From Nitrososphaerales archaeon (GTDB taxonomy: Archaea; Thermoproteota; Nitrososphaeria; Nitrososphaerales; Gagatemarchaeaceae), in NCBI GenBank assembly GCA_035314985.1, contig DATFYP010000101.1, positions 1 to 59,486 on the forward strand: a stretch of 59,486 bases of DNA, written 5' to 3'. The notes below the pieces were generated by a model. The model was not told the DNA's origin. It ran no database searches and worked only from the letters and a program-made list of their open reading frames with translations. Position 1 is the first letter of the stretch, and every line of letters starts with the position of its first letter. A program made the position numbers and the translations under genes. Below are positions 17,604-51,435 of this stretch, piece after piece.

Positions 17604-17766
17604 CGCAGGGGGTGGGACTTTCGCCCGAGGGAACTCCCACTCAAGTGGAGCTTTCCCCTGGGATTCGAACCCACGAGTCCCGTGAGAGACACAGGCTTAG
17701 CAAGCACACGCCGGTTGACTGCGCCTTACCAGGCTCCCCGTCACGATGACTCTAGGCTACCCCTGC
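17604..17766 (-). tRNA. tRNA-Ser(GCU) with three introns
   Basis: Removing 17737-17754 (18 nt, D-arm), 17706-17718 (13 nt, position 29/30) and 17613-17658 (46 nt, T-arm) gives an 86-nt class II tRNA. Its parts are acceptor GCAGGGG/CCCCTGC, D-arm GCCGAGCCTGGTAAGGC, anticodon arm CAGGC-TTGCTAA-GCCTG, variable arm GTCTC-TCAC-GGGAC and T-arm GTGGG-TTCGAAT-CCCAC. Confidence 0.85.
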
Positions 17767-17791
17767 TCGATTCAGGAGCCGACTGCTGACA

Positions 17792-17800
17792 GTTAAAAAA
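17792..17800 (-). promoter_or_regulatory. T/A tract, likely an oligo-T terminator for the SRP RNA and an A/T box for tRNA-Ser
   Basis: The minus strand reads CTTTTTTAAC immediately 3' of the SRP RNA end and 26-34 nt upstream of the tRNA-Ser 5' end. Confidence 0.35.
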
Positions 17801-17805
17801 GTTGC

Positions 17806-18131
17806 AAGTGGCGGCGGCTCCCCCGGAGTTCACCATCGGTCTCCGCCCCCGTCTCGCCAGACGGAGAATCCCCCACGTAGACGAAGCAGCGTGGCCACGT
17901 CACCATAGGGCTGCTCCCTCCCGGACCTCGCCCGATTCGGCAATTAGTGGTCAGGACCTCTCCTTCGAGAGGACTGCCTCTCATGACCGCCCGCCACGGC
18001 GTGAGTTCGTCTCCTCCGCCCGACGCAGGTTGCGGGGATGGTGGCTTTACCCGAAGGTTGCTGGCCTCTGCATGTTGCCGGTTTCAGCCTATCGGGAGAC
18101 GGCAACCCTCCCTGCCCTACCCGCCGCCAGT
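17806..18131 (-). ncRNA. signal recognition particle RNA (7S RNA), ends +/-5 nt
   Basis: The termini pair (GGCGGCGG with CCGCCGCC). The helix-8 signature GGUCCGGGAGGGAGCAGCC is close to the universal GGUCCGGAAGGAAGCAGCC. A helix-6-like hairpin CUCUC-GAAG-GAGAG is present. The ~326-nt length fits archaeal SRP RNA. An A/T box TTAATTA lies about 25 nt upstream. Confidence 0.85.
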
Positions 18132-19076
18132 CTCGAGGAGGTCAGGCGGTGTAATTAACCTCTGCTGCCTGAGCACATCTTTCATCCTGCAGACGCTGCA
18201 GCGCCCGGCGGACGACGGCTTCCCGCAGCTCGTGCAGGGGACGGATCGTTTCTCCGACTTCCCGCCGTAGTGAGATATGACGTCGAGGGCCGAGTTGAAG
18301 AGGACGTTCTTCATCCCGGGATGGTTGGCCTCCATCTCGTTGAGGTAGTCCCTGACATCGCTCCTCAGGCCTTCATGCATGTACGGGCAGCTGACGCTCT
18401 GGAACGGGATCCCAGACCTGTAGGCGAAGAGGGCGATCTCCTCCTCGTAGATCTCCATGAAGGGCTTCACCCGTCTCATCGCGAAGTCGCTGCCTTCGTA
18501 GGAGGGGTCGAGCCAGCCCAAGCGGCCTACGTCGCCGTGGAGCAGGTTCATCAGGAATGTCTGTACGTAGTCGTCCAGGTTGTGCGCCGTGGCGACCACG
18601 GACGCCTTCGCCTCCGAGGCGGCTTCGTCGATGGCACGCCTTCGGAATACGCCGCAGAGGCTGCATGAAGACGTGTTTCTCTCCCCCTTCCAATCCAAGG
18701 CCTTGTCGAGGGTGAATCCGAAGAGCTCCTCGTAGGTGACGATGTGGTGTTCGACCCCCAGCTCTGAGGTGACGGAGCGGGCGTGGGCAAGGGCCTCGTC
18801 CCTGTATCCGGCGACGCCCTCGTCCACAGAGATAGCAACCAGTTCGGCGCCGTGCCACTCCTTGAGGTCGCTTAGAATCCTGAGAAGGGCGAGGCTGTCC
18901 TTGCCTCCAGAGACCGCGACCCCCACGCGGTCCCCCCGTTGGATCATGCGGTATCTGACAATCGTCCTCCTCGTCTTCTCCACTACGGAGCCTGCGAAGC
19001 ATCCCTCGCAGAGCACCTCCCCCGAGTATCGCCTGGTGAAGAATGGCCTCCCGCCGCACTTCGTGCAGAAGCTCAA
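18117..19076 (-). CDS. PP-loop tRNA 2-thiolation ATPase (Ncs6/Ctu1/TtuA family)
   Basis: N-terminal CTKCG...CEGC, PP-loop VAVSGGKDS, internal SCSLCG and C-terminal CTSCG...CSVC. The last ~14 nt overlap the SRP RNA 5' end. Confidence 0.8.
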   Translation of the reverse strand: MSFCTKCGGRPFFTRRYSGEVLCEGCFAGSVVEKTRRTIVRYRMIQRGDRVGVAVSGGKDSLALLRILSDLKEWHGAELVAISVDEGVAGYRDEALAHARSVTSELGVEHHIVTYEELFGFTLDKALDWKGERNTSSCSLCGVFRRRAIDEAASEAKASVVATAHNLDDYVQTFLMNLLHGDVGRLGWLDPSYEGSDFAMRRVKPFMEIYEEEIALFAYRSGIPFQSVSCPYMHEGLRSDVRDYLNEMEANHPGMKNVLFNSALDVISHYGGKSEKRSVPCTSCGKPSSAGRCSVCRMKDVLRQQRLITPPDLLETGGG

Positions 19077-19156
19077 GGTTCCGCCCGGAGGGGGCTCCCT
19101 CTGCTAATAAGATGAACGCTTAAAGCGGCAGCGACGGCCGCGGGGGAGCTAAGCTG

Positions 19157-20392
19157 TTGGAAGAAGAAGTCAAACGGGTGCAGTTTGCCTATGGGCTAGT
19201 GTTTCTCAGGACGAAGCGCTTCCAGTCGCTGATGGACAGGCTGGGGAAGCGGAGAGTCTCGAGGCCGATAAGTTGGGCGCTGCTCTACATCATGCCGGTG
19301 GCCGCCGCGATTGGTCTTTACATCTTCTTGTCGGAGGCTGCAATCCTCTTCTCGCCGTTGAGTTCCGAGGTCGGGACGGCGATAAGGGGAGTGAGCCCCC
19401 TCGCGTATCTCGGCCTGCCGGGCATCAACCCCTACATCCCCTGGGTTGACGGATGGATCGCGCTCATAGTCGCGATGATCGTACATGAAGGGGCCCACGG
19501 CGTCGTAGCGAGAAGCCTGGGCCTCCCTGTGAAGGCGTCGGGACTTCTTTTCTTCCTGATCGTGCCCATAGGAGCATTCGTGGAGGTCGACGAAGAGGCG
19601 GTGAAGGTGGCCAGGGCCAGGGACTCGGCCCGCGTCTGGGCAGCCGGGGCGGGGGTCAACTTCGTCATAGGGATCATCGCGCTGCTTCTGCTCTTTGCTG
19701 TCGTCTCTACGATGACCCCCCTGACGAGTGGCTTGGCCGTGAGTCAGGTCAACGTTCCGTCCCCCGCCGCCAAGGCAGGGATCATGCCCGGGGACTTCGT
19801 CAAGGCGATCAACGGCGTAAGTTACAACGATACCGGGCAGCTCAGCGCGGCGGAAGCGGCCGGGAAGCTCGTCCCGAATCAGACCGTCACGATCACCGTC
19901 TGGAGCGCGGGGGTGACCCGGGTGGCCAACAACGTCACTCTCGTCGGAAATCCCGGGAACAGCTCCAGGGCGTTCATCGGGATCACGTCCGCAGGGTCTG
20001 ACTACCTGCAGACGCTGGTGCAGTTCTACACGGGGTCGTTCTTCTCGAGGCCGGCTCTGTACCTGTGCATCCCGACCTTCCCCCAGTGCCAGGACGCGGT
20101 GCCGTTCTCAGGGAGCAACTCGGCGTTCTACACCTCCACCTACGGGGCGTCCCTTGTCCCGTTGGCGACGCTCCTCTACTGGCTCTTCTTCCTTAACTTC
20201 AACCTCGCCATCTTCAACTCTCTCCCGCTGGGTCCCCTCGACGGCGGGCAGGCGTTCAGGCTCGGCGTGAAGGCCCTGGGAAGGGGGAAGCTGAGCGAGG
20301 GGACGCTGACGAGAATCAGCGCACTGGTCGCCGTCGCCGTGGTGGTGGTGATTGCGGCCGTCCCGTTGGCCGCTTACCTGCACCTGATCTAG
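19157..20392 (+). CDS. M50 site-2 protease with a PDZ domain
   Basis: HEGAHGVVARS is the HExxH motif, PAAKAGIMPGDFVKAINGV marks the PDZ domain, and NLAIFNSLPLGPLDGG is also present. The protein is multi-TM. The TTG start is uncertain. Confidence 0.8.
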   Translation: MEEEVKRVQFAYGLVFLRTKRFQSLMDRLGKRRVSRPISWALLYIMPVAAAIGLYIFLSEAAILFSPLSSEVGTAIRGVSPLAYLGLPGINPYIPWVDGWIALIVAMIVHEGAHGVVARSLGLPVKASGLLFFLIVPIGAFVEVDEEAVKVARARDSARVWAAGAGVNFVIGIIALLLLFAVVSTMTPLTSGLAVSQVNVPSPAAKAGIMPGDFVKAINGVSYNDTGQLSAAEAAGKLVPNQTVTITVWSAGVTRVANNVTLVGNPGNSSRAFIGITSAGSDYLQTLVQFYTGSFFSRPALYLCIPTFPQCQDAVPFSGSNSAFYTSTYGASLVPLATLLYWLFFLNFNLAIFNSLPLGPLDGGQAFRLGVKALGRGKLSEGTLTRISALVAVAVVVVIAAVPLAAYLHLI

Positions 20393-50695: not shown

Positions 50696-50709
50696 GGAGC
50701 GAGATTTTC

Positions 50710-50826
50710 GTGGCCGCGTGCATCTGCCGTGTCTGCAAGCACAAGGACTACGAGAGCTGCGGGAAATGCACCTGCTGCAGCTACCACAGGTGCGCGTGCA
50801 TGCCGAAGCCCGTTTCTTCGGGATAG
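50710..50826 (+). CDS. 38-aa cysteine-rich mini-ORF (9 Cys, 2 His)
   Basis: The GTG start is 15 nt after the HD-gene stop, with GGAG 10 nt upstream. The sequence is MAACICRVCKHKDYESCGKCTCCSYHRCACMPKPVSSG. It falls below the ORF-track cutoff. Confidence 0.35.
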   Translation: MAACICRVCKHKDYESCGKCTCCSYHRCACMPKPVSSG

Positions 50827-50884
50827 AGGAAGGGCGTAGGGGTCAAATACCAACAGTACTTTCAACTTTACGAGACCGTTCCCG

Positions 50885-51298
50885 TTGCAAGCTGAGGATC
50901 CCTATGAGTTGGGGTGGCTTGTTGGACTAATCGACGGGGAGGGCTTCATACATGTCCACTATCGGAAAAACAGGGGCACCACTCACCCTCGCCTAAGGAT
51001 ATACTGCACCACCAAAGAGATAATCTCTGAGGCATGCAGGATACTAGGGGTCAATCCCTATGCCCGCAGAGATCACGGCATCCTCCTGGGATGGTACGCC
51101 CAGGTGTCCGAACTGAAGGCGATAAGGGTCCTTGGGATAATCGCGCCGCGCATCATCGAGCCGTCCAAGCGCTGTCGCGCAGAAAGAATTCTGAGGGTCT
51201 TCGGGGATTGCGGCACCATCAAAGGATTACACCGCTCCATTGACTTCTTCAAAGGATGCCCACCACCTACCCGGTTGAGGGCGCCTCGAAGCATATAA
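50885..51298 (+). CDS. free-standing single-motif LAGLIDADG endonuclease-like protein
   Basis: LGWLVGLIDGEGFIHV is the LAGLIDADG motif. 137 aa with a TTG start. The stop codon lies inside the A/T box of the downstream tRNA. Confidence 0.6.
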   Translation: MQAEDPYELGWLVGLIDGEGFIHVHYRKNRGTTHPRLRIYCTTKEIISEACRILGVNPYARRDHGILLGWYAQVSELKAIRVLGIIAPRIIEPSKRCRAERILRVFGDCGTIKGLHRSIDFFKGCPPPTRLRAPRSI

Positions 51299-51300
51299 TA
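51292..51300 (+). promoter_or_regulatory. TATA-box-like element for the initiator tRNA gene
   Basis: catataata is centred about 27 nt upstream of the tRNA 5' end (51324). Confidence 0.4.
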
Positions 51301-51323
51301 GCCACATTTTGGAAGTCCGTTGA

Positions 51324-51435
51324 AGCGAGGTGGGGAAGCCAGGATCATCCCGGCGGGCTCATACGCGCAAGCCGAGAGACCCGCAGATCGGTGGTTCAAA
51401 GGGGGCGAGAACCCCTGAAACTCCACCCCTCGCTA
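51324..51435 (+). tRNA. initiator tRNA-Met(CAU) with two introns
   Basis: Removing 51364-51378 (15 nt, canonical 37/38) and 51401-51421 (21 nt, T-loop 59/60) gives a 76-nt tRNA. It has an A1:U72 pair (AGCGAGG/CCTCGCT), a D-arm GGGA-AGCCAGGATCA-TCCC, an anticodon arm GCGGG-CTCATAA-CCCGC with three G:C pairs, and a T-arm GGTGG-TTCAAAT-CCACC. Confidence 0.9.

Follow-up and report, generated by a model that had tools for sequence, protein, structure and literature searches.

Multiple BHB-type introns at recurrent non-canonical positions in the tRNA genes of a putative soil Nitrososphaerales archaeon

Introduction

Archaeal tRNA genes interrupted by introns with bulge-helix-bulge (BHB) motifs are a known structure. 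The best-known group is the hot-spring Thermoproteales, where multi-intron tRNA genes were described in Pyrobaculum calidifontis and Thermofilum pendens (Sugahara 2008 and Fujishima 2010, as relayed in PMC4033280 and PMC8450103) and intron transposition was reported as well (Fujishima 2010, as relayed in PMC4033280). The order averages 0.84 introns per gene, and its record is 71 introns in 46 genes (PMC8450103). Multiple non-canonical tRNA introns are also already known in Thaumarchaeota, and Nitrososphaerales carry 0.69 introns per tRNA gene, with two introns in 16% of the genes (Table S7, PMC8450103); among the 498 thaumarchaeal tRNA genes of the tRNAscan-SE 2.0 census, none has three (PMC8450103).

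Here we analyze a stretch of 59,486 nt of metagenomic origin (hereafter, the window). We consider it nearly 90% probable that its five tRNA genes are functional and interrupted by 12 protein-spliced archaeal introns, in an organism of the Nitrososphaerales (Thaumarchaeota) radiation. What is unusual is the intron density in a soil archaeon of this type rather than in the hot-spring group.

Results and discussion

Interrupted tRNA genes in the window

Neither ARAGORN nor Rfam (at the gathering score and at E<=10) reports a tRNA in the window, which therefore has no uninterrupted tRNA gene. When 12 short insertions are cut in silico from five loci (Table 1), perfect cloverleaf Val-UAC, Ser-GCU, Trp-CCA, Pro-UGG and initiator Met (iMet) tRNAs are obtained, all of which are read by ARAGORN as full-length. 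The statement of the first-pass annotation that every tRNA gene here is interrupted accordingly stands, as do its count of 10 introns in the Ser, Trp, Pro and iMet genes (3+2+3+2), three of them at 37/38, and its 13-14-nt introns at 29/30 in Ser and Pro, both with a strict BHB core. The Val gene, located just beyond the range 17604-51435 stated there, was suspected to share the 29/30 intron; the actual site is 28/29, one position off.

Table 1. Interrupted RNA genes of the window and their introns. H, central helix pairs; h, outer helix; h', inner helix; a strict BHB core corresponds to H4.
Feature	Coordinates	Strand	Description
tRNA-Val(UAC) gene	16104..16210	-	107 nt, 75 nt spliced; acceptor/T-arm scan, ARAGORN on spliced form
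Val intron 1	16165..16180	-	16 nt, 28/29, strict BHB H4/h1/h'2
Val intron 2	16133..16148	-	16 nt, 44/45, strict BHB H4/h2/h'3
tRNA-Ser(GCU) gene	17604..17766	-	163 nt, 86 nt spliced, 3 introns; ARAGORN on spliced form
Ser intron 1	17734..17751	-	18 nt, D-loop 15/16, relaxed HBh' H3/h0/h'4
Ser intron 2	17706..17718	-	13 nt, 29/30, strict BHB H4/h7/h'1
Ser intron 3	17618..17663	-	46 nt, T-loop 59/60, strict BHB H4/h5/h'3
5S rRNA gene	30794..30931	-	138 nt, interrupted; Rfam 34.3 bits, gathering score 38
5S BHB-type insertion, candidate mini-intron	30866..30882	-	17 nt; precise relative to five orthologs without it
tRNA-Trp(CCA) gene	33186..33357	+	172 nt, 74 nt spliced, 2 introns; ARAGORN on spliced form
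Trp intron 1	33203..33235	+	33 nt, D-loop 17/17a, strict BHB (H4/h1/h' 2-7 over five orthologs)
Trp intron 2	33257..33321	+	65 nt, canonical 37/38, strict BHB H4/h5; conserved internal block
tRNA-Pro(UGG) gene	37065..37203	+	139 nt, 76 nt spliced, 3 introns; ARAGORN on spliced form
Pro intron 1	37080..37114	+	35 nt, D-loop 15/16, HBh' H4/h0/h'6
Pro intron 2	37132..37145	+	14 nt, 29/30, strict BHB H4/h3/h'1
Pro intron 3	37154..37167	+	14 nt, canonical 37/38; H4 only in this register
iMet(CAU) gene	51324..51435	+	112 nt, 76 nt spliced, 2 introns; ARAGORN on spliced form
iMet intron 1	51364..51378	+	15 nt, canonical 37/38, H3/h5/h'2, GCAA tetraloop
iMet intron 2	51401..51421	+	21 nt, T-loop 59/60, strict BHB H4/h5/h'4

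The introns occupy positions 15/16 (two genes), 17/17a, 28/29, 29/30 (two), 37/38 (three), 44/45 and 59/60 (two), so that three non-canonical sites, 15/16, 29/30 and 59/60, recur in two genes apiece. With 2.4 introns per tRNA gene (n=5 genes), at least two in each gene and three in two of them, the proposed very high density of archaeal endonuclease-type (BHB) introns with recurrent non-canonical positions is supported; the five genes exceed all clade averages in the tRNAscan-SE 2.0 census.

A strict BHB core is present at 10 of the 12 junctions, and the remaining two (Ser 15/16 and iMet 37/38) have three of the four central pairs. By comparison, a 4-bp central helix is found in 2.3% of arbitrary junction pairs from the same genes, which corresponds to P of about 1e-9 to 1e-15. 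Prior removal of the other introns does not affect the scores. Across the orthologs, 55 junctions comprise 41 with H4, 12 with H3 and 2 with H2. The D-loop motifs at 15/16 in Ser and Pro lack the outer helix (h=0) and are of the relaxed HBh' type.

Introns of individual genes in relatives

The Val gene adjoins the enolase gene in four orthologous loci (L001-L004). Its 28/29 intron is kept in all five orthologs and shows a compensatory change (exon GAUG/intron CAUC as opposed to exon GACG/intron CGUC), and the 44/45 intron is present in the window, L001 and L003 but missing from L002 and L004, where removal of the 28/29 intron alone converts the 91-nt gene to 75 nt. In the Ser gene, which adjoins an SRP RNA gene (17812-18126, Rfam), the 15/16 intron (16-18 nt; H4 in L002 and L004) and the 29/30 intron (13-15 nt) are found in 7 of 7 orthologs; the latter preserves its exon-pairing 3' GCG(C/U) segment, with a freely variable loop. 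The T-arm intron of Ser, for which a strict BHB appears only in a register shifted by -5, was re-placed at 59/60, the site of the second iMet intron; it is present in L003, L005 and L006 and missing from L001, L002 and L004.

The Pro 15/16 intron is shared with L083 (22 nt) and missing from five other orthologs. Among 7 orthologs, the 29/30 intron is unique to the window, and so reflects either a recent gain or a loss from every other ortholog. At 37/38, introns of 16-35 nt are found in L081, L083 and L154; a 38/39 placement of the window intron was rejected, with C38 confirmed by the intronless orthologs. One of these (L082:3717-3792) shares 75 of 76 positions with the predicted mature sequence, and two others (L155 and L156; Rfam tRNA 55-57 bits) are close variants of it. 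The iMet gene displays the initiator traits readable in the sequence, namely the A1-U72 pair and three G-C pairs in the anticodon stem. Its 37/38 intron reaches H4 in L159 via a C-to-U change and is missing from L160, and the 59/60 intron is present in L157, L158 and L160 and missing from L159; L157 and L158 have three introns each.

For Trp intron 1, 17/17a is the sole junction with a strict BHB in all five orthologs, in which the inner helix shows compensatory changes, and an alternative placement at a 'GGGCG' repeat was rejected on these grounds. Metatranscriptome contigs without this intron read GCCCAGCA|AGGCAGGGCG, consistent with joining at 17/17a; because their flanks differ from those of the window, they are from relatives whose genes may just lack the intron. 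The canonical Trp intron is 62-65 nt long in all orthologs, with two of the four central pairs in the strict register in L154 and L156. In a peat metatranscriptome contig of a close relative, its 3' end is joined to its 5' start (...GCUGCAGAA|UGGUCAAAC...) at the predicted cut sites; the RNA support is limited to this circularised intron and pertains to the relative, not to the strain of the window.

In Haloferax volcanii and other Euryarchaeota, the intron of tRNA-Trp reportedly (Clouet d'Orval, 2001) is canonical, contains a C/D-box guide RNA and forms a stable circle. The Trp intron described here is similarly long and canonical, has a circular form in RNA (in the relative), and includes a conserved internal block with UGAUGA and a segment with complementarity to the anticodon loop. 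Unlike the Haloferax guide, it lacks a convincing box D (CUGA) where the spacing would call for one, and L154 and L156 have GCUGA in place of UGAUGA. A guide role is putative here.

Lineage of the window and comparison with intron-rich archaea

The first-pass annotation regarded the intron density as a Thermoproteales-type hallmark, and indeed 2.4 introns per gene together with three-intron genes is, in the tRNAscan-SE 2.0 census, a trait of Thermoproteales only. An origin of the window from a crenarchaeon of this type, with the intron load known for that order, is nevertheless highly improbable: the best genome matches of the enolase are Nitrososphaerales MAGs (66-78% identity, with the next groups at 53% or lower), the GTPase and the PLP-enzyme have homologs with 73-93% identity that carry the labels Nitrososphaerales, Thaumarchaeota or Nitrososphaerota, and the source and related samples are soil and peat. 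The GC content of about 0.60 fits the range of 54-62% given for Gagatemarchaeaceae (PMC10640624). Judging from GC, habitat and MAG labels, the organism, an uncultured archaeon from soil or peat, most likely belongs to Group I.1c (Gagatemarchaeaceae), which is high in GC and does not oxidise ammonia.

With as many as three BHB/HBh' introns in a gene, mostly non-canonical and located in the D-arm, anticodon stem, variable region and T-loop, with rapid turnover between relatives and with genes missed by standard tRNA finders, the window resembles the multi-intron tRNA genes of Thermoproteales as these are portrayed in the secondary accounts cited above. The differences are the Nitrososphaerales-related host, found in soil or peat instead of hot springs, the higher density (five genes sampled) than both the mean and the record for that order, and the lack of detectable intron sequence families in what is a small sample. 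Cultivated Thaumarchaeota, to which the Thaumarchaeota BHB model of tRNAscan-SE 2.0 applies, belong to the same phylum-level group and have the same kind of intron, but three-intron genes, absent from that census, account for two of the five genes here, in addition to the iMet genes of L157 and L158.

Proposed splicing mechanism, intron turnover and alternative explanations

In the primary transcript, each exon-intron pair would fold into a BHB or relaxed HBh' motif, in which a 4-bp helix formed by the last exon nucleotides and the intron 3' end has a 3-nt bulge on either side. The tRNA splicing endonuclease EndA would then cleave past the second nucleotide of each bulge, and an RtcB-type ligase would seal the exons and circularise the intron. 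The motif, the restored cloverleaf and ortholog conservation with covariation are seen here, and evidence of circularisation is confined to the Trp intron of a relative. The window contains neither an EndA nor an RtcB gene. According to PMC5829648, relaxed HBh' motifs are cut only by (alpha-beta)2 or epsilon2 EndA; with the h=0 motifs, this makes a broad-specificity endonuclease a reasonable prediction, and we infer an (alpha-beta)2 EndA carrying the Cren/Thaumarchaeal loop.

Intron turnover is rapid: among relatives with 60-90% protein identity, introns are present in some and absent from others precisely at predicted junctions (Ser 59/60; Val 44/45; Pro 15/16, 29/30 and 37/38; iMet 37/38 and 59/60). 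Such gain or loss, the intron sites shared by different tRNAs and the Thermoproteales precedent (Fujishima 2010, as relayed in PMC4033280) would be compatible with gain by transposition or local duplication of mobile families, a route that had been proposed from GGCTAG, GGGCG and TCCCA repeats flanking the introns. These repeats do exist in the sequence, but GGGCG is an artefact of the misplaced Trp junction and vanishes with the correct one; GGCTAG consists of a quasi-self-complementary central helix GGCU and the AG bulge, which the symmetry of the BHB allows on both strands, and the L083 ortholog ends in GGCGAG; and TCCCA shares bases with the CCC/GGG pairing of the inner helix and has degenerated to TCCCG, TCCTG and TGGCG in orthologs. 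Furthermore, no sequence families were found among the window introns, which, compared in pairs, were no more alike than shuffled controls (1 of 78 pairs at p<=0.05 compared to 3.9 expected by chance; five genes sampled). Transposition with target-site-like repeats thus appears unlikely.

That the loci are decaying pseudogenes with insertions that are never removed, complemented by functional intronless copies elsewhere in the genome, is very improbable, even if standard detectors miss all five and some relatives have intronless Val(UAC) and Pro(UGG) genes at the same positions. Against this, the exons are nearly invariant across relatives while the introns diverge, except for their exon-pairing parts, which are conserved or co-vary; the insertions sit in BHB motifs far above the chance rate; and the Trp and initiator loci are syntenic single genes that are interrupted in 5 of 5 Trp and 5 of 5 iMet orthologs examined. 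Compensatory changes are seen both between exon and intron and within introns. An artefact of assembly or binning of this metagenomic window is hardly credible: the same gene structures, with diverged sequences, recur in independently assembled NCBI, ENA, JGI and Logan contigs, and an independent Logan DNA unitig of the source run matches the 5S rRNA region, the one locus tested, base for base, insertion included. The preferred reading is therefore that of functional tRNA genes with spliced introns.

An interrupted 5S rRNA gene

A related feature, beyond the original tRNA observation, is the interruption of the 5S rRNA gene, the orthologs of which are 120-121 nt long and score 62-73 bits in Rfam. 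BHB introns occur in the 16S and 23S rRNA genes of Thermoproteales and Desulfurococcales; our literature search turned up no 5S rRNA intron. As in those genes, an EndA-type motif interrupts an rRNA gene and its presence varies between relatives; unlike them, the insertion is in 5S rRNA, is just 17 nt long and has no ORF. It folds into a central helix CCCC/GGGG with an AG|A bulge on each side, an inner helix CUC/GAG and a GAAA loop, and is probably removed by the same machinery as the tRNA introns.

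Interrupted tRNA genes in the window

Neither ARAGORN nor Rfam (at gathering thresholds and at E<=10) detected an intact tRNA in the 59.5-kb window; the other RNAs found there by Rfam are the archaeal RNase P RNA, the archaeal SRP RNA and a 5S rRNA that scores below the threshold. Once the insertions were removed in silico from four loci reported in the first-pass annotation, ARAGORN produced end-to-end calls for Ser(GCU), Trp(CCA), Pro(UGG) and Met(CAU), and a scan for a 7-bp acceptor stem combined with a T-arm added a fifth gene, Val(UAC), just beyond the range originally covered. 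With the detectors empty, the four loci resolved and Val added by the scan, the window thus holds at least five tRNA genes, none of them intact, and 12 insertions (Val, 28/29 and 44/45; Ser, 15/16, 29/30 and 59/60; Trp, 17/17a and 37/38; Pro, 15/16, 29/30 and 37/38; iMet, 37/38 and 59/60). According to ARAGORN, splicing, redone from the window coordinates for re-verification of the final intron positions, yields, in all five genes, a canonical cloverleaf whose acceptor stem, D-arm, anticodon arm and T-arm are all intact. The original observation that every tRNA gene of the window is interrupted therefore stands, with two or more introns in each of the five.

The filtered acceptor/T-arm scan, which acceptor-stem introns and split or permuted genes escape, yielded no tRNA genes besides Val. 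An unrestricted acceptor-stem scan of the intergenic regions returned only noise, and brute-force BHB-like deletions accepted by ARAGORN were too permissive, with many spurious isotypes, and were not counted as evidence.

Coordinates of the features discussed in the text (L numbers are contigs of relatives that carry syntenic orthologs of window genes)
Feature	Sequence	Positions	Strand	Remarks
Integrase-core (rve_3) fragment	window	813-1118	-	near the left end
Lhr-type DEAD/DEAH helicase gene	window	2206-5058	+	~950 aa
SMC/RecF-like ATPase gene	window	6343-8349		
Lhr-type DEAD/DEAH helicase gene	window	8455-11298	+	~950 aa
tRNA-Val(UAC)	window	16104-16210	-	
Archaeal SRP RNA	window	17812-18126	-	adjoins tRNA-Ser
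Conserved noncoding element	window	~23455-23632	-	~178 nt
5S rRNA gene	window	30794-30931	-	
ORF with LAGLIDADG_3 match	window	30836-31459	-	E=1.6e-7
5S insertion	window	30866-30882	-	17 nt, ACUCGAAAGAGGGGGAG
Trp intron 1	window	33203-33235		17/17a
Canonical tRNA-Trp intron	window	33257-33321	+	37/38; block GACACGG.A.CGUGGAUGAU..G..UUGGAGC conserved across relatives
Archaeal RNase P RNA	window	54813-55101		
Intronless Val(UAC)	L005	9838-9910		
Intronless Val(UAC)	L006	9789-9861		
IS240/rve-type transposase	L155	1-605		edge of the syntenic locus
Three-intron initiator tRNA gene	L157	9795-9928		37/38, 52/53, 59/60
Three-intron initiator tRNA gene	L158	7001-7134		37/38, 52/53, 59/60

Bulge-helix-bulge motifs and placement of the junctions

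Each junction was scored for the bulge-helix-bulge (BHB) motif, in which exon positions -5 to -2 pair with positions -5 to -2 of the intron in a 4-bp helix, cleavage falls behind the second nucleotide of each 3-nt bulge, and there are outer (h) and inner (h') helices. The scoring register agrees with a known pairing, that of position 32 with the intron base 3 nt upstream of the 3' splice site. All four central pairs form at 10 of the 12 window junctions and three at the other two (Ser 15/16 and iMet 37/38); the outer helix is absent (the relaxed HBh' form) at the three D-loop sites and at the 5S site. Because four central pairs arise by chance in 2.3% of arbitrary junction pairs in the same genes, 10 strict cores out of 12 are highly improbable (P ~1e-9), even with four registers allowed per junction.

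Where repeats left a junction ambiguous, a single register gave the motif, which fixed Ser 59/60, Val 44/45 (the second Val intron) and Pro 37/38. A Ser T-arm intron at 64/65 was dropped in favor of 59/60, the sole register with a BHB, and Pro intron 3 at 38/39 forms only two central pairs, compared with four at 37/38, where the join also leaves C38, a base confirmed by intronless genes. Trp intron 1, when placed at 25/26 between the GGGCG copies, as in a hand parse and apparently also in the first-pass annotation, has no BHB in any register. Only the comparison of five orthologs gave a shared strict BHB, so this intron was assigned to 17/17a: the single solution common to all of them cuts after GCCCAGC(U/C) and before AGG(N)AGGGCG, with a strict BHB in 5/5, and joining leaves a normal 9-nt D-loop, AGCUAGGCA. 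Metatranscriptome contigs from more distant relatives that lack Trp intron 1 (GCCCAGCA/AGGCAGGGCG and similar, the slash marking the join) agree with this placement.

The short repeats at the junctions had been read as duplications compatible with intron gain. The GGGCG repeat at Trp is an artefact of the misplaced junction, since intron 1 belongs at 17/17a. GGCTAG at Pro 15/16 consists of D-stem GGCU plus an AG bulge on each strand, and it reflects the two-fold symmetry of the BHB motif because GGCU can pair with the second GGCU through G-U pairs; the ortholog in L083 ends in GGCGAG. At Ser 59/60, the intron begins with TCCCA, which takes part in the inner helix and has decayed in orthologs. 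The proposed search for families of related introns came out empty: when the 13 window introns, a small sample, were locally aligned pair by pair and compared with shuffles, they resembled each other no more than expected by chance (p<=0.05 in 1 of 78 pairs vs 3.9 expected). The recurrence of the 29/30 intron in Ser and Pro is real, and the same two genes share 15/16, with 59/60 recurring in Ser and iMet. Signs of intron transposition were not found among the five window genes, which are too few to exclude it. Restored cloverleaves, motif and orthologs together identify the window insertions as predicted introns of the archaeal EndA-spliced (BHB) type.

Intron presence, absence and covariation in orthologous genes

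Syntenic contigs were retrieved through enolase, which is encoded between Val and Ser ('Nitrososphaerales archaeon' MAGs), metagenome contigs through the MPG glycosylase gene adjoining Pro, and nine further syntenic loci through homologs of the GTPase (beside Trp) and the PLP enzyme (beside iMet). The exons are near-invariant and the intron loops diverge freely, with exon-pairing intron bases retained or co-varying; among 55 ortholog junctions, 41 form four central pairs, 12 three and 2 two. At Val 28/29, exon GAUG/intron CAUC is replaced by exon GACG/intron CGUC, a compensatory change, and the 7-bp inner helix at Trp 17/17a varies from GGUGAGG/CUUCACC to GAUGGAG/CUUCAUC and to GGAAA/UUUCC. 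One-sided G-U changes occur at Pro 37/38, and at iMet 37/38 a C-to-U change brings back the fourth pair.

The distribution of individual introns is uneven. The tRNA-Pro gene is intronless in three relatives (L082, L155, L156), and that of L082 is identical to the predicted mature window tRNA-Pro at 75 of 76 positions, C38 included; the 37/38 intron occurs alone in L081 and L154, and together with 15/16 in L083. Four relatives have the Ser 59/60 intron and three lack it, and Val 44/45 is present in 3/5. The initiator gene, with introns at 37/38 and 59/60 in the window, has an additional one at 52/53 in L157 and L158, a D-loop intron with 37/38 in L159 and a D-loop intron with 59/60 in L160. As far as comparative sequence analysis can tell, the insertions in the orthologous genes behave exactly as would be expected of spliced introns, and such presence or absence of single introns among close relatives is good material for studies of intron gain and loss.

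The three-intron initiator genes are found in the two closest relatives (L157 and L158). The last two of their introns are only 7 nt apart and so break up the T-stem that serves as outer helix for one motif (h reduced from 5 to 2), which points to a required sequence of excision. Where the window has its interrupted Val(UAC), L005 and L006 have a different, intronless Val(UAC) with a GGGGGCG... acceptor; the gene seems to have been replaced and not merely to have lost its introns.

A candidate intron in the 5S rRNA gene

The 5S rRNA gene of the window is 138 nt long and scores 34.3 bits in Rfam, below the threshold, compared with 120-121 nt and 62-73 bits for five orthologs. It is pushed under the threshold by a precise 17-nt insertion that lacks a counterpart in all five and that an independent DNA unitig likewise carries. 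The insertion has a BHB core with a CCCC/GGGG central helix, two AG/A bulges, a CUC/GAG inner helix and a GAAA cap, and is accordingly listed here as a BHB-type candidate intron with putative splicing. A literature search found no report of a published 5S rRNA intron; if this one is spliced, archaeal splicing would gain a new class of substrate RNA. The ORF with the LAGLIDADG_3 match lies immediately 5' of the 5S gene and overlaps it, at a locus with ~325 nt extra relative to L154; the ORF could be what is left of a homing endonuclease or mobile element.

RNA observations and the canonical Trp intron

No RNA run holding the window strain was found. Relatives are present in peat metatranscriptomes, with SRP RNA at very high depth (word depth 1e5-1e6), and the lineage is therefore transcriptionally prominent in peat. 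A 77-nt contig of depth 5.8 from one such metatranscriptome, run X5, represents an L155-like variant of the Trp 37/38 intron and joins its 3' end to its own 5' start exactly at the predicted cut sites (...GGAGCUGCAGAA/UGGUCAAACAAACAAUCGUUUGAUGAC), as the excised, circularised Trp intron of a relative would give. Apart from this circle, searches for spliced Ser, Trp and iMet joins in four to six peat metatranscriptomes returned only gene-like or precursor-like contigs of relatives, and the non-canonical junctions had no RNA support in the metatranscriptomes searched.

In the conserved block of the same intron, a 9-nt stretch is complementary to the anticodon loop and the 5' splice site. We compared the intron with the C/D-box pattern (box C RUGAUGA, box D CUGA, and a target-pairing guide 5 nt upstream of box D). 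In the window intron, UGAUGA and the 9-nt anticodon-loop complement are present, CUGA at the required spacing and an Rfam C/D match are not, and box C is not kept in L154 and L156. The Trp intron could possibly serve as a guide RNA, although the C/D boxes do not fit.

Lineage and intron density

Soil and peat MAGs of Nitrososphaerales give the best enolase matches (78% identity, then 66-68%, with the next groups at <=53%). The GTPase and the PLP enzyme have homologs with 73-93% identity that carry the labels Nitrososphaerales, Thaumarchaeota or Nitrososphaerota, and the NCBI lineage is Nitrososphaerota; Nitrososphaeria; Nitrososphaerales. The only sequencing run that holds the window is a soil metagenome. 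The GC content of ~0.60 falls in the 54-62% range reported for Gagatemarchaeaceae (Group I.1c) and well above the 31-34% of a low-GC thaumarchaeal clade, a value described as typical of most ammonia-oxidiser lineages (PMC10640624, where introns are not mentioned). From these data we infer a placement in Group I.1c; the protein matches, the soil source and the GC content show that the Thermoproteales-type attribution suggested originally was wrong. Pfam scans of the window found no genes for EndA, the tRNA splicing endonuclease, or for the exon-joining ligase RtcB; a loop specific to Crenarchaeota and Thaumarchaeota has been described in the EndA alpha unit (PMC3239211).

Several non-canonical introns in a single tRNA gene are known from Crenarchaeota and Thaumarchaeota, and tRNAscan-SE 2.0 supplies a Thaumarchaeota-specific BHB model (PMC8450103). 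In Table S7 of that study, the 498 thaumarchaeal tRNA genes have 200 introns and include no three-intron genes, Nitrososphaerales average 0.69 introns per gene, and Thermoproteales average 0.84 and account for all 16 three-intron genes found; the record for one genome is 71 introns in 46 genes. The five loci of the window average 2.4 introns per gene, two of them with three introns, and the mean across the 31 ortholog genes examined is 1.8. Thus, whereas multi-intron tRNA genes are well established in the hot-spring Thermoproteales, the window belongs to a mesophilic, high-GC soil and peat lineage that is denser over five loci, and cultivated Thaumarchaeota have such genes at lower levels. The kind of feature is already known; the lineage and the density apparent from five loci would be new.

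We consider it slightly short of an even bet (probability about 0.45) that this thaumarchaeal lineage of soil and peat (probably Group I.1c) carries the densest load of endonuclease-spliced introns known for any organism, with roughly two or more per tRNA gene genome-wide, three-intron genes outside Thermoproteales, and spread into the 5S rRNA gene as the first 5S intron described. In that case, the proliferation of introns would have no fixed tie to hyperthermophily, and the tRNA and 5S gene counts that MAG surveys give for this abundant soil group would be systematically too low. A dense load in a mesophilic lineage would weaken the link between high temperature and intron proliferation, and would widen the range of organisms dependent on a broad-specificity EndA. 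ARAGORN and Rfam missed all interrupted tRNA genes in the window and in the contigs of relatives, and the 5S gene is sub-threshold; genomes of this group will therefore be marked down wherever completeness is judged from the number of tRNA and rRNA genes.

Other elements of the window

A conserved noncoding element between a Toprim ORF and the PheRS-beta gene shows 89% identity across four relatives, with diverged flanks. It forms two long hairpins with one compensatory pair, contains an internal UGAUGA and has an ACA-like 3' end (...GGGCAACAA); it has no Rfam match and looks like a double-hairpin H/ACA guide RNA. The rve_3 fragment of the window and the IS240/rve-type transposase in L155 are signs of mobile elements in the lineage. 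The two Lhr-type helicase genes are paralogous and are separated by the SMC/RecF-like ATPase gene.
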